Source: Eledone cirrhosa (taxonomy: Eukaryota). From it: 64,000 nt of DNA. The notes under the pieces are model-generated. The model did no database searches. It saw only the letters and a program-made list of their open reading frames with translations, and was not told the DNA's origin. The stretch's first letter is position 1, and every line of letters begins with the position of its first letter. Position numbers and translations under genes: made by a program. This document shows, piece by piece, positions 3,825-53,967 of this stretch. The DNA lies in NCBI GenBank assembly GCA_964016885.1, contig OZ024741.1, positions 355,074,001-355,138,000 on the forward strand, given 5' to 3'.

Positions 3825-4136
3825 ATAAGAAAACATTACAGGAACACAACGGGAAGAAACACAGAAACATCACTGATGATGTCACAGATATGTGTGATGA
3901 AAGAACTCTGAGAAACTATATTTATATTTATGTTTTTTAACTGTTTGTCAATCAATGATAAACAGCTAGATCATTTATAGAAATATAAAAATATACTGAA
4001 GCGTAAACCAATCCAAACAGGGAGTGTGCTTTACTATATTTTTCCGGCAATTTTTTTAACATGACCCCCAAATATAACAATATCTGTTTCAACACACGAT
4101 TTCATATTAAAAACCTTGCAAAACAAAGACATCACC
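3825..4136 (+). repeat. Hammerhead-bearing repeat family; relatives at 30135-30699 and 25859-25940
   Basis: Shared AACATGACCC..CAAA.TATAACAATATC.GTTTCAACACACGATTTCA; hammerhead-like cores at 3870-3911 and 30441-30483. Confidence 0.6.
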
Positions 4137-4332
4137 ATATATATATATATCAGAAGATCCCGTAAAAGGGAGAAAGCAGCGGTTCTTTGCTTAAACTTTA
4201 ATCTTCACTTATAATAAATGTTTGCTCTATGGGTTTATTTATATACTTTATATATATAATCCTTATCGAGCCCTCTTCTTATTTTAGTCTTCACATTTAT
4301 TATTACTATATATATATTTTTCTTGTGACTCT

Positions 4333-4460
4333 AAACTCCGCCAGTTGCAGACTGTGCATTAACATGTGATATTTCTCTCCACAAAGTTCGATCACCAGCA
4401 GCAGAGTTCAAAGAGCAAAGATCATGTCCAGTCCATAAATTGACATTGTCAAGCCATCGT
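4333..4460 (-). mobile_element. 3' end of a second RTE-like LINE family; partial copy at 178-222
   Basis: Reverse translation RWLDNVNLWTGHDLCSLNSAAGDRTLWREI. Confidence 0.65.
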
Positions 4461-4839
4461 TTATATATATATATATATATATATAAAATCACTATGTTTG
4501 ATCCTTTCTCCCCAGAACATCATATCTCTAGAATTTATTTTCTCCTTATACATGTTTTTCTTGCAGGAGTTCACCTGCGACTATTTAAACTGAACATCAA
4601 CATCATCAATCTTATTGGTCTTGGAGGGCCTGCAAAGGTCATAGACACAGCCCCTTCCTTTGAGAGGTCAATAGCTTTGAATACTGACCTGGTCTTTGAT
4701 GACCTGTCCCACCCTTTTTAGTGGAGAAAATGGACATTAAATGATGATGATGAAAATGTTTATACAATGGGCTAAAATAGATGAGTAAGAAAGTAAATTT
4801 CCATGTATTTATTATAGTATCAATAATTTGTGATTGTAG

Positions 4840-4924
4840 GAACCACAAGGTACTGCGAGAAACTGCCCAACACTGCACCAGGTTTATCAGTTTAGCAAAA
4901 GTTTCCAACAAACAGAAACTAAAG
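4840..4924 (+). CDS. CWF19L1: CWF19L1 exon (RNHKVLRETAQHCTRFISLAKVSNKQKLK)
   Basis: tgtag/gtaaaa splice sites; phase-consistent; matches NH...AQHxTRFIxLAxV. Confidence 0.92.
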
Positions 4925-5127
4925 GTAAAATAATTAACCCTTTTGTTACCATATTTCTAAGGAAGTCTGCTGCTTATGTGTGTCAATTAACCATTTTTTT
5001 TACTGTATTTCTCATGAAATACTCACTATTTCAATTAATTAATGGAAAATTTTGAAGGTTTTTTTACTAAAATTATCAATTATTTCATTACTAAGATTAA
5101 TTAATATATGGTTCTTATATAATTGAT

Positions 5128-50732: not shown

Positions 50733-51033
50733 TATGTAAAGTTATGTCGGTGCCACGCCATCCAGGCCGAAACAAATAAGATCGTGTAGGTGTCACGACA
50801 AAAAAACACACAGTCCACGCTGTAATGTGGCCGTGTAGGCAACACGGTAAAAACCTCCCAGACCCACACTGTAAATGTGGTTGGTGTTAGGAAGGGCATC
50901 CAACTGTAGAAAACCTGCCAGACAGTCCTATGCGAGCAAGACAATCACTCTTGCCTCAAGTGGGAATATCCCCGTCCAAACCCATGCAAGCGTGGAACAT
51001 GGACGTTAAACGTTGATGATGATGATGATGATG
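50733..51033 (+). mobile_element. RTE-derived short non-autonomous element (5' UTR subrepeats + RTE-like 3' end); near-identical copy at 18280-18682; relatives at 470-705, 18760-19214, 48590-48900, 51220-51440, 56770-56885, 57120-57553
   Basis: GTTGGTGTTAGGAAGGGCATCCA is shared with the RTE 5' UTR (39465-39490); tail GCAAGC..GGAA...GGACGTTAAA(TGA)n is shared with the RTE 3' end. Confidence 0.8.
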
Positions 51034-51751
51034 ATACATAGATAGATACACACACACACATACAGACGCACGCACTAACACACACACACACACAAACAAA
51101 CTTGTGTGTGTGTGTCTGTGTGTGCCTTGTTGGTACAGAAAGAATTTTGTCTCCAGTTTTTATTGCCGGATCAAGGGCCACTGCTCTTTTCAACAACGTC
51201 AAATAACAACGCCATATATATCATCATCATCATCATTTTACGTCCGCTTTTCTCTGCTTGCAAGGGTGGGACGGGAACTGATTCTGGCTTGATTTCTACA
51301 GCTGGATGCCCTTCCTAACACCAACCTCATTTACAGTGAGTGCCGGGTGCTTTTTTTCCGTGGTGCCTACACGTCCACTTTACAGTGTGGGCTGGGTGCT
51401 TTTTTGCTGTGGCACCTCCACGTCCACTTTGCAGTGGAATGATAGGGACCCCAGTCCCTATCATCTCATTTCTACAGCTGAGTAAACTGGAGCAATGTGA
51501 AATAAAGTGTCTTGCTCAAGGAAACAACACATCACCTGGTCTGAGAATTGAACTCACAACCTTTCGATTGCAAGCCCAATGCTCTAACCACTAAGCCATG
51601 TGCCTCCACTATATAGAGAGAGAGAGAGAGAGAGAGAGAGAGAGAGAGAGAGAGAGAGAGAGAGAGAGAGAGAGAGAGAGAGAGAGAGAGAGAGTAATAA
51701 ATGTGTGTGTGTGTGTTTGGTACACATCTATCTTTCTATTTATCTCTCCAA

Positions 51752-52151
51752 CAGGGGGCTCAAACATGTGGCTTGCGAACTACTTTTCTATGGCCTGTGG
51801 TAGAACCAATATTTCAGATTCCATTATAACTGGTGAAAATAAGGCGGTGAGCTGGTGGAATCTTTAGCACATCTGGCGAAATGCTTAGCGGTACTTCTTC
51901 CGTTTTTACATTCTGAGTTCAAATTCCGCCGATCTCAACTTTGCCTTTCATCCTTTTGGGGGTCGATAAATTAAGTACCAGTGAACTGGGATCGATGTAA
52001 TCGACGGGACCCTATACCCTAAATTTCATGTCTTGTGCCTATAGTAGAAATGATTATAACTGGTGAAAATTATCACCCACCACCACGTTTGGCCCAGTGC
52101 CTCTCCTACAGGACATAATGGCCCTTTTATGTCCTTGAGTTTGAGACCCCT
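51752..52151. mobile_element. hAT-type MITE with a nested SINE
   Basis: CAGGGGGCTCAAAC ... GTTTGAGACCCCT imperfect TIRs. Confidence 0.6.
51841..52052 (+). mobile_element. Octopus-type SINE with an 18 bp TSD; many relatives (e.g. 1050-1225, 9540-9750, 14930-15095, 15500-15675, 21020-21500, 23750-23905, 63583-64000)
   Basis: TSD ATTATAACTGGTGAAAAT; core GAGTTCAAATTCC..ACTTTGCCTTTCATCCTTT..GTCGATAAA..AAGTACCAG. Confidence 0.85.
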
Positions 52152-52765
52152 CTTCTACATACAGACACACACATATAAACATATATATATACACTTTACT
52201 TTTTGTCTGTCTCTGGACTAGGCTCTCTGGACTAGGCCCATGTAAGTTATGGCGACGTCAACAAACCAACAAGCATTGGTGGGACGGCAAACACAAACGC
52301 AAAGACACACACAGACATATATACGACGCGCTTCTTTTAGTTTCGGTCTATCAAATCCACTCATAGGGCTTTGGTTGTCCCAGGCAGTGGGACTGAAGCC
52401 GGAAACGTGGTTCGGAAGCAAGCTTCTTGCCACACTGCACATATATATATATATGTGTGTGTGTGTGTGTGTGTGTGTGTTTTAAGTTAACAATGAAAAT
52501 AAAAAGAACAAAGTCAAGTTACTTCATAACTTTGTTTTTATTTTATTGTTTTTATTTTTATTGTTAATTTAATACCTAATATCTGACTCTGTATCTAAAG
52601 AATTAATTCAGCGAAACACAGAACTTCTCTATGGATTTTACAAGATTACATTGAGTCCTATCTACGGTACGGACCCTACCACCAGAGGTAGACAGACTGA
52701 AAAAAGAAAATATATATATATATATGTGTGTCTGTGTGTGTATAATATATATATATATATATATA

Positions 52766-53967
52766 ACGATAAATTAACGGAGGCATAGGCCGTCGTTATT
52801 CCCTGTAAATAATGTGCTCAAAGGGGAAGAGATCCTGAGCCCTTTAAAATATAATATGTTGAGAAGGTAACACACCAGAGAGAGATATATAGTGCGCTAT
52901 CAATAATACAGGGAAAAAACCACCAGTGTATGGAATCTATAACCTATGAAAGGCAGACTATAGACACGATAATTAAAAATATAAATTAAAGCGTAAATAA
53001 ATACCTCTATAACTATATAACACACGTACAAATCCAAAGATATGTTTCACCAGAAAATTTGTTGAAAGAAATGGTAGTCTCGGTTCATCAGCGTGTGTAA
53101 GGCTATACATCTCAGACAACACTAAGAGAATTTTACAATTGACTGTCCAGCTACACGTGGGAGAGAGAAGTCACAGCGTGTTTAAGGGCAGTGAACCAGT
53201 GGCCTCTGAGAGACGAACTGCTAGAAAGGGCAGCCCAAAGCCACTCAGAGAGGAGTGCTCAACCAAACAGAGATAGGAAAGACTGTTGTTAGGAGCGAAA
53301 TATCACGATAAATTAACGGAGGCATAGGCCGTCGTTATTCCCTGTATTATTGTTTTTTCCCTGTATTATTGATAGCGCACTATATATCTCTCTCTGGTGT
53401 GTTACCTTCTTAACATATTATATTTTAAAGGGCTCAGGATCTCTTCCCCTTTGAGCACATTATTTACAGGGAATAACGACGGCCTATGCCTCCGTTAATT
53501 TATCGTGATATTTCGCTCCTAACAACAGTCTTTCCTATCTCTGTTTGGTTGAGCACTCTTCTCTGAGTGGCTTTGGGCTGCCCTTTCTAGCAGTTCGTCT
53601 CTCAGAGGCCACTGGTTCACTGCCCTTAAACACGCTGTGACTTCCCTCTCCCACGTGTAGCTGGACAGTCAATTGTAAAATTCTCTTAGTGTTGTCTGAA
53701 ATGTATAGCCTTACACACGCTGATGAACCGAGACTACCATTTCTTTCAACAAATTTTCTGGTGAAACATATCTTTGGATTTGTACGTGTGTTATATAGTT
53801 ATAGAGGTATTTATTTACGCTTTAATTTATATTTTTAATTATCGTGTCTATAGTCTGCCTTTCATAGGTTATAGATTCCATACACTGGTGGTTTTTTCCC
53901 TGTATTATTGATAGCGCACTATATATCTCTCTCTGGTGTGTTACCTTCTCAACATATTATATTTTAT
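52766..53967. mobile_element. Retrozyme-like non-coding element B: 539 nt monomer, inverted pair of slightly-more-than-monomer arms in (TA)n
   Basis: ACGATAAATTAACGGAGGC at 52766 and 53305; GTTTTTTCCCTGTATTATTG at 53352 and 53891; arms are near-perfect reverse complements with different permutation. Confidence 0.85.
53713..53791 (+). ncRNA. Type I hammerhead ribozyme with extended stem III; antisense copy at 53020-53098
   Basis: ACACACG/CGTGTGT stem I, CTGATGA, ACC(G)AGA...TCTGGT stem II, GAAA, CATATC-TTTG-GATTTG stem III, GUA. Confidence 0.85.

Follow-up and report, generated by a model that had tools for sequence, protein, structure and literature searches.

Two kinds of published metazoan repeat carry hammerhead ribozymes like those described here. 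First, Penelope-like elements bear minimal type I hammerheads in their terminal repeats, with an extra base after A9, a palindromic stem III suited to dimers, and mostly solo truncated copies with some opposite-strand pairs, all of which recur in our material (PMC4209133). Among these elements, the Hydra clade is described as having a C-terminal GIY-YIG endonuclease, an RWK-like motif, DKT, a CxCX5C linker, CxxC and CxH, without a CCHH finger, and Hydra elements with hammerheads in (TA)n have been published, an octopus family included (Craig 2021, PMC8557442). The Naiads of the same account have an N-terminal nuclease and a CxC domain, favour (TA)n, carry no canonical hammerheads (an octopus Naiad has half a core) and are present as remnants in cephalopods. 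Second, metazoan retrozymes are tandem units without an open reading frame (ORF) and with one type I hammerhead each (PMC7229834; review PMC6765202), for which a Penelope origin has been proposed (10.64898/2026.07.22.740005). Craig 2021 (PMC8557442, section 15) describes what the hammerhead does in Penelope-like elements as unclear, and the case for Penelope mobilisation of retrozymes rests, in the accounts given, on co-occurrence and similarity (PMC7229834; 10.64898/2026.07.22.740005).

Here we analyse hammerhead-like motifs in a window of 64,000 nucleotides (nt) from Eledone cirrhosa (assembly GCA_964016885.1 of 3.0 Gb, contig OZ024741.1, positions 355,074,001 to 355,138,000 of the forward strand; G000:C2:355074001-355138000), a setting of about 31% G+C with long (TA)n arrays in the window. 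Hammerhead density alone is nothing new, as Hydra elements with hammerheads in (TA)n are already in print. From the comparison of genomic copies, we consider it likely that the motifs are terminal-repeat hammerheads of Hydra-type elements, together with ORF-less units of the same insertion signature, and that many copies of two autonomous families (family A, at 32683, 41069 and 46184, and family B, at 4151) start exactly at the first base of stem I, probably having been copied from a capped and uncut template. Coordinates are collected in Table 1.

Hammerhead folds in the window

An initial annotation of the window had listed 17 sites as about ten unrelated type I hammerheads, mostly in inverted units near (TA)n, and its coordinates were all correct. 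Eight sites fit a hammerhead descriptor (3873, 32693, 33696, 39857, 41213, 46194, 53091 and 53720), and eight are damaged or partial copies of fold-bearing families (4151, 30445, 34334, 40566, 47219, 47651, 48183 and 48309), the site at 34334 being weak. The last, proposed as a 3′ half at 36205, is the arm of a plain palindrome, with neither CUGANGA nor UH in its family alignment, whereas the second proposed 3′ half, at 47219, belongs to a family with the full motif elsewhere. Inverted and head-to-head units were seen as described, and the TA-rich flanks held up: a (TA)4 run lies at most 300 nt from 15/17 sites, against 50% of random positions. The families are mostly unrelated at the DNA level, as had been claimed, the exceptions being 3870/30445, at 80% across 51 nt, and a single marginal match of 28 nt.

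The abundance of AT-rich repeats raises the possibility of chance matches. The CTGANGA core alone shows no clear excess on the two strands of the window (36 against 25.6 ± 5.1, maximum 38, in 200 shuffles). A strict descriptor gave three matches against 0.48 expected, a number equalled in 3/200 shuffles; these are the 53-kb pair and a chance match inside a long interspersed nuclear element (LINE), and most motifs were missed. We relaxed it to tolerate one unpaired base flanking stem II on each side and a stem II of up to 130 nt, a post hoc choice drafted with the motifs and the published Hydra hammerheads already in view. The relaxed descriptor finds 7 matches with stem I of at least 4 base pairs (0.02 in shuffles) and 8 with stem I of at least 3 (0.08 in shuffles), counts reached in 0/300 shuffles. 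When nine short regions were folded, eight were no stabler than shuffles (z -1.4 to +0.05), the exception being the palindrome at 36205; the 46-kb motif was stabler than its shuffles (z -6.9). The near-chance cores, the post hoc descriptor and the weak folding all fit coincidence, which is the right account of 36205 and possibly of 34331. As an explanation of the whole set it is extremely improbable, given the shuffle counts, the stem covariation in family A and the 530-nt family, and the placement of the motif, which in families A and B sits in a terminal repeat 185-490 nt ahead of the ORF, the known place of Penelope hammerheads.

The fold was also followed across genomic copies, with 450 nt scanned per locus, so that flank motifs may count and some loci overlap. 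The descriptor fits 28/30 loci for the 53-kb family, 27/30 for the 40-kb family, 29/30 in an unbiased sample of family A, 14/30 for 3870, 8/25 for 33691, 4/25 for 47646, and 2/25 and 2/30 for the 47219 and 48-kb families. Non-fitting sites were judged on family alignments of the 21-30 best genome matches per family. For the family at 34330, stems I and II are visible only in the alignment majority, and its single descriptor match (1/21) is an unrelated flank motif. Stem II pairs in 92.9% of 462 cells across 21 distinct sequences of family A (slid controls, 25-54%), and older relatives of the 530-nt family swap U-A for C-G in stem II, one compensatory pair; stem covariation, which the annotation had named as a check, is thus present between subfamilies. 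Cores better kept than flanks, also anticipated, were not found within families, as would be expected of dead copies. Taken together, the identification of the motifs as type I hammerhead folds of about ten repeat families is largely confirmed.

The unusually long stem II that had been noted is real and lies beyond standard descriptors. Stem II measures 115-116 nt at 32693, 41213 and 46194, 99 nt in the 47219 family, 94 nt in the 47646 family, 52 nt at 33696 and 48 nt at 39857. The expectation of a palindromic stem III holds for most families (perfect in five, near-palindromic in two or three) and fails for the 53-kb and 4151 families, in which it is long and non-palindromic. Both features depart from the minimal hammerheads of PMC4209133, with stem II much longer in five families and a long, monomer-type stem III in two. 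A scan of the window with Rfam returned no hammerhead family among the 150 listed of 173 matches. Further CTGANGA cores at 6752, 48532, 58444 and 58546 are followed by short hairpins or enclosed by a shared repeat, and none fits the descriptor.

Hydra-type families and ORF-less units

Families A and B each have a single ORF with a reverse transcriptase (RT) followed by a C-terminal GIY-YIG domain, a YRDD motif, RWR, SDKTG, CNCRNxxxC (the CxCX5C linker), CxLC (CxxC), and CxH around a conserved E and N. Between GIY and YIG there is one Cys in family B and two, eight residues apart, in family A. Both are inserted in (TA)n with a hammerhead in the terminal repeat, and both ORFs resemble the published Hydra-1_Obim when compared by eye. 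Pfam finds GIY-YIG in the family A ORF with E 0.0078 (below the cut-off) and returns no RT match on the full ORF. These protein signatures identify families A and B as Hydra-clade Penelope-like elements, sharing with the published clade the RT, the C-terminal GIY-YIG, the motifs, (TA)n, inverted arms and a tail (PMC8557442). The Penelope-like origin proposed by the annotation is borne out, in that two families are joined to Penelope-like ORFs. Its Naiad-type driver is not: the preference of Naiads for (TA)n and the half core of an octopus Naiad are in its favour (PMC8557442), as is the lack of a known driver for the hammerhead-less palindromic repeat at 36.1 kb, but the ORFs in cis of A and B are of the C-terminal-nuclease Hydra type, which contradicts it for both, and the Naiads described are without canonical hammerheads and reduced to remnants in cephalopods (PMC8557442; no Naiad search of this genome was made). 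We consider mobilisation by a Naiad-type enzyme very improbable.

In family A, the insertion at 40878-46392 consists of a tailed inverted repeat, a truncated ORF, about 4.2 kb of low-complexity DNA, a direct repeat and (TA)n. At locus L063 about 490 nt separate the hammerhead from the first Met downstream of it, the motif recurs 6.44 kb on, and the low-complexity region of the window matches this locus at 91.5% identity over 41557-44797 and at 96.8% from 45603. The 830-codon frame is 99-100% identical and stop-free in 150/150 matches listed. A 3-kb (TG/TA) microsatellite called at 42416-45530 by Tandem Repeats Finder is part of family A and copied along with it; since this stretch lies inside the element, family A spreads its own microsatellite-like DNA. 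The ORF also contains an Asn/Lys/Thr-rich insert of about 95 residues that is absent from family B (L062:4245-6683, residues ~475-575) and that recalls the N-rich inserts described for rotifer Penelope ORFs (Arkhipova 2013).

Family B proteins are 45-47% identical to those of family A. Locus L422 holds motif, ORF and motif within 3,259 nt, and in 14/15 stretches, chosen around motif pairs, an ORF end lies 0.9-1.5 kb upstream on the same strand; among unbiased loci an ORF is found within 1.5 kb in 3/30. The family B fold has a 5-bp stem I, a 3-bp stem II over a U.U mismatch and a 5-bp stem III, with A at core position 4. This A is fixed, with 24,437 exact matches in the genome against 288 for C, G and T together, and 20/30 unbiased copies fit the descriptor when A4 is allowed, against 0/30 with U4. 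Changes of U4 reduce hammerhead cleavage. Core changes in general usually lower activity, and A4 is not named in the text of section 8 of Perreault 2011; the variant core of PMC4209133 is U3-A8. Family B with A4 may be inactive, and it would be either a new active core variant or a dead ribozyme whose fold is kept in a very successful family. A C.A or U.U mismatch at the base of stem II was considered as a novelty and dropped, being already present in Craig's File S2 and in Perreault 2011.

These hammerheads are of type I, and their stem II is often flanked on either side by an additional unpaired base, as in the Hydra elements in File S2 of PMC8557442. They come from different families and differ in several respects from the Hydra elements described there. 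The family A unit measures 6.4 kb, with a low-complexity 3′ region of about 4 kb, where published elements are generally below 3 kb; tails are 80-140 nt here and 30-40 in the published cases; stem II reaches 116 nt, whereas File S2 lists short hairpins for Hydra elements; and the fixed A4 core and thousands of near-identical copies are found here.

The 530- and 539-nt units are closed and ORF-less, with one type I hammerhead each, and occur in tandem and inverted arrays of 1-2.3 units. Exact pattern matches number 39 for the 539-nt unit and 411 for the ~530-nt unit. As tandem ORF-less repeats with a hammerhead per unit they qualify as retrozymes by sequence, in agreement with the retrozyme-like members foreseen in the annotation. 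Both lengths fit the 51-972 bp given by Li et al. 2026 (10.64898/2026.07.22.740005) and exceed the 170-400-nt circles described for retrozymes in 2020 (PMC7229834). ORF pieces beside them (L301-L304, L315) were examined as partners and rejected, since (TA)n or other sequence lies between and the pieces differ by locus. The tails of ORF-less and autonomous families share no sequence beyond the 28-nt match mentioned above, and three contig runs of unrecorded kind against the 539-nt unit returned divergent relatives only.

Insertion ends and the state of the template

All four families tested end at two fixed 3′ positions that run into (TA)n and are separated by 80-140 nt. Counted from C3 of the hammerhead core, these lie at +198 (14) and +335 (7) in family A, at about +80 and +165 in family B, at +241/+246 and +330 in the 539-nt unit, and at +129 and +245 in the 530-nt unit. 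Head-to-head insertions combine one long with one short arm in 30/30, 24/28, 5/5 and 9/12 cases; the remaining pairs are 2 short with short and 5 unclassified, with no long with long. The expectation for long with short under independence is about 0.4-0.5, an approximate figure obtained with identical TA-ended contexts merged. ORF-less units thus share the signature of the autonomous elements, which gives direct genomic support for Penelope-type mobilisation, where the retrozyme papers argue from co-occurrence and sequence similarity and, in the text available, do not describe such a signature (PMC7229834; 10.64898/2026.07.22.740005).

The signature has a counterpart in the Poseidon element PAc of Anolis, in which the length of the tail corresponds to the stretch that separates two internal sites of RT initiation; in vitro, the substrate is uncut RNA, and hammerhead mutants insert normally (Frangieh 2024, PMC11167929). 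Two internal RT starts, extension on both strands, an AT-rich target and an uncut template would be common to both systems. PAc belongs to another clade and was studied in vitro, and the available text of that paper describes neither a capped start at stem I nor the pairing of a long with a short arm. Head-to-head arms have been explained by self-priming on an antisense template (Arkhipova 2013). The long-with-short rule, and arms that both end at stem I, would fit two sense templates better.

The 5′ ends are the second line of evidence. In family B, an 18-mer that opens with the first base of stem I and reaches into the core has 24,437 copies, and the preceding base is G in 1,868, A in 854, C in 710 and the native T in the rest, against a single-site point-change baseline of about 100 per letter. 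G accounts for 54% of the non-T bases before stem I, compared with 24% from window composition. Sampled loci are 5′ boundaries in 29/30 cases with G and 10/10 with A, and against the opposite arm the G is untemplated in 11, templated in 4 and without anchor in 15. In 29 incidental copies, present at loci that had been retrieved for the remaining families, 12 extend beyond -59, and 14/17 breaks fall at -7 to +1. Family A shows the same pattern at -7, with G in 428 of 5,887 copies, and all 30 sampled are 5′ boundaries (untemplated 11, templated 12, no anchor 7); of 30 unbiased copies, 10 start there (5 with G, 4 with A, 1 with C), one is a divergent relative and the other 19 continue past this point. 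The predicted cut site of family A has no comparable 5′ hot spot: 557 copies have a non-T base there against 6,854 with T, and 18/20 sampled non-T copies belong to a subfamily with another allowed base, leaving 2/20 as boundaries.

We take the start sites of families A and B to resemble the initiator consensus. An extra G at full-length L1 junctions is described as marking the cap (PMC11702581), and the Penelope terminal repeat has a promoter with an initiator and a downstream promoter element (PMC2377424). From these two precedents, together with the start at stem I and its extra G, we infer a capped start at stem I. Whatever causes the pile-up, complementary DNAs (cDNAs) span from downstream to upstream of the cut site, so the template was continuous across it, in line with the in vitro result for PAc.

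Two sets of junctions deserve separate mention. At L434/L435 (G000:C1:23582216-23582280) and L431/L432, the head-to-head junction holds the first 13 bases of family A, extra G included, in up to three copies, which looks like repeated re-copying of the template's 5′ end. A family A subfamily with a shorter stem II and another cut-site base (L491-L510) includes two copies that start with G three bases further upstream, and its start site may be shifted.

The Hydra identity could also be kept with another source for the 5′ pile-up, namely an RT stop or joining hot spot at the ribozyme edge, or a splice acceptor, with the G arising from microhomology or untemplated addition and not from a cap. 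The opposite arm templates the G in 16/38 anchored loci, the breaks are scattered over -7 to +1, family B has an AG acceptor-like sequence at the spot, and a Penelope intron is reported to end at helix I (PMC4209133), all of which would suit this alternative. However, an RT that travels 3′ to 5′ reaches the fold from the 3′ side and not from the 5′ edge; family A is without AG at the site, some junctions carry an extra base on both arms, and the share of G exceeds that expected from composition. We judge this alternative unlikely.

Several observations weigh against a capped, uncut template in Hydra-type families. The G is templated in 4/15 anchored loci of family B and in 12/23 of family A, its excess was gauged at the stem-I position only, and a T before stem I may be native or a boundary, the two being inseparable. 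Of four incidental family B breaks exactly at -5, one has G and three have C, and with the pyrimidine run and AG of family B at this spot a splice acceptor could be involved. The five stem II pairs of family A that change on both sides come from rows of about three subfamilies or lineages, and 63/500 shuffles reach that number. No ORF link was shown for six families, among them those of 3870/30445, 33691, 34331, 47646 and 48 kb, and the partner enzyme of the ORF-less units was not found. Additionally, a stem-I hot spot is missing from these units: 2/20 breaks lie close to the core, of which none shows G at stem I, and the count is 1/31 among distinct contexts.

Instead, the 5′ breaks of ORF-less units are spread all round the unit (in small samples, one of them chosen by best match), as a circular or long tandem template would give. 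This touches the model of Cervera, in which cleavage is obligatory and, applied to all families, tandem transcripts would be cut, ligated into circles and reverse transcribed. Intact cores, arrays of 1-2.3 units and the spread of breaks in ORF-less units are in its favour, and stems are kept across subfamilies. A circle cannot, however, give the fixed 5′ end upstream of the cut site seen in the autonomous families; the most abundant family has a non-canonical core, and long tandem read-through explains the ORF-less units equally well. Obligatory cleavage in all families therefore seems to us quite improbable, while for the ORF-less units only it is plausible.

Under the preferred reading of a capped and uncut template, an internal RNA polymerase II promoter would start the transcript at stem I, and the endonuclease would nick both strands in (TA)n. 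Downstream of the ribozyme the RT would then initiate at two internal positions, one for each strand, with the cDNAs joining at their far ends, and on reaching the cap it would leave a short copy headed by the hammerhead. Such short copies, left when the RT runs to the cap, would explain the hammerhead density. Because these cDNAs extend across the cut site, cleavage would be an alternative outcome for the RNA and not something that insertion requires, leading to loss of the cap, to monomers from tandem read-through, and to circles for the 530-540-nt units.

Other repeats of the window and the role of the hammerhead

The remaining families are mostly old. In many copies of the 3870 family G10.1-C11.1 is kept, but the copy in the window shows a T there. 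Beside 3/25 loci of the 47219 family lie ORF pieces that are related to one another, and this family is probably a third Hydra-type element; ORF pieces also lie near 2/30 loci of the 48-kb family, whose site at 48183 has an intact core with a shortened stem II and whose site at 48309 has C3 changed. The repeat that contains the palindrome (~35990-36250; L276-L300) is abundant and (TA)n-flanked and has a tail-like second end without a hammerhead; many of its copies have a further inverted arm.

Table 1. Hammerhead-bearing and associated features of the window (positions count from its first letter)
Positions	Strand	Feature	Remarks
3870-3911	+	Minimal-type hammerhead, old family	Stem I 3 bp, stem II 6 bp, stem III 2 bp
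4151-4197	+	Family B hammerhead fold, copy broken at core	A at position 4; 5′ strand of stem I missing
30441-30483	+	Hammerhead, sister family of 3870	G12 changed; GAAA intact in incidental copies
32683-32898	+	Family A short copy	Hammerhead, 115-nt stem II, to tail-less 3′ end; inside long (TA)n array
33542-33771		Head-to-head pair, old family	Hammerhead 33691-33771 (+), 52-nt stem II
34330-34372	+	Decayed hammerhead-like motif, small old family	Weakest case; 21 matches
36125-36249		Near-perfect ~125-bp palindrome of (TA)n-flanked repeat	z -17.5; not a hammerhead
39628-40690		~530-nt tandem-unit element	Inverted tailed arm and direct arm ending in (TA)n
39784-39862; 40561-40639	-; +	530-nt unit hammerheads	Descriptor fit at 39857; at 40566 base of stem II changed
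40878-41557	-	Family A inverted terminal repeat	137-nt tail; hammerhead 41069-41223
41557-41939	+	Family A 5′-truncated ORF end, GIY-YIG endonuclease	126 aa identical to end of 830-codon frames
41940-46183	+	Family A low-complexity 3′ region, ~4.2 kb	Element-owned, not host microsatellite
46184-46392	+	Family A direct terminal repeat	Hammerhead 46184-46338, 116-nt stem II; tail-less end into (TA)n
47173-47234	+	3′ half of long-stem-II hammerhead	Full motif elsewhere in family
47646-47770	+	Long-stem-II hammerhead (94 nt in family)	Core changed in this copy
48145-48348		Head-to-head short-stem hammerheads, old family	48145-48191 (-), 48301-48348 (+)
52761-53966		539-nt tandem-unit element	Inverted tailed arm and direct arm ending in (TA)n
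53020-53098; 53713-53791	-; +	539-nt unit intact hammerheads	Both fit descriptor

Other repeats of the window include a LINE that is present as two decayed copies, at 1197-3869 (+) and 36290-39480 (-); it has an RT and a PHD finger (Pfam RVT_1, PHD), and the CTGANGA cores of the copies are chance matches. About 7.7 kb of nearly pure (TA)n at 25532-33249 holds the nested repeat copies at 30441 and 32683. A tRNA-like Rfam match at 51541-51598 (-), at 31.2 bits and above the cut-off, is perhaps the head of a short interspersed nuclear element, and minisatellites lie at 13432-13940 (41 bp), 14458-14932 (38 bp) and 60074-61104 (84 bp). Elsewhere in the assembly, the flanks of loci L177, L288 and L207 contain more hammerhead-like motifs, of families outside the annotation, and tblastn finds many Hydra-type ORF pieces at 25-60% identity, indicating that the genome holds many more families.

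Four features are, in the literature that we searched, which was thin on subscription journals, not found in print: an A4 core fixed in a family of 24,437 copies; starts at stem I of Penelope elements with an extra G as the commonest foreign base; a stem II of 50-116 nt in Hydra hammerheads; and the long-with-short rule in ORF-less units. One possible and decidedly tentative hypothesis is that in Hydra-type Penelope elements the hammerhead acts as a self-decapping brake at the head of a capped mRNA. Cut RNA would be lost both as mRNA and as template, and uncut RNA would be copied. Families could escape by a crippled or burdened ribozyme, such as the A4 core with its more than 24,000 copies or stem II inserts of 100 nt, and ORF-less units would keep a monomer-competent ribozyme, circularise and be inserted by the same Hydra enzyme.

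Because of their long stem II, these ribozymes are undercounted by standard scans. Family A, with its many near-identical and stop-free ORFs, offers a ready system for an in vitro test. The genome of E. cirrhosa shows a very successful family with a non-canonical core, alongside ORF-less units with the two-end signature of Penelope elements. The thousands of insertion junctions collected here bear on both the role of the hammerhead and the mobilisation of retrozymes, and they point to a template that is uncut and probably capped.

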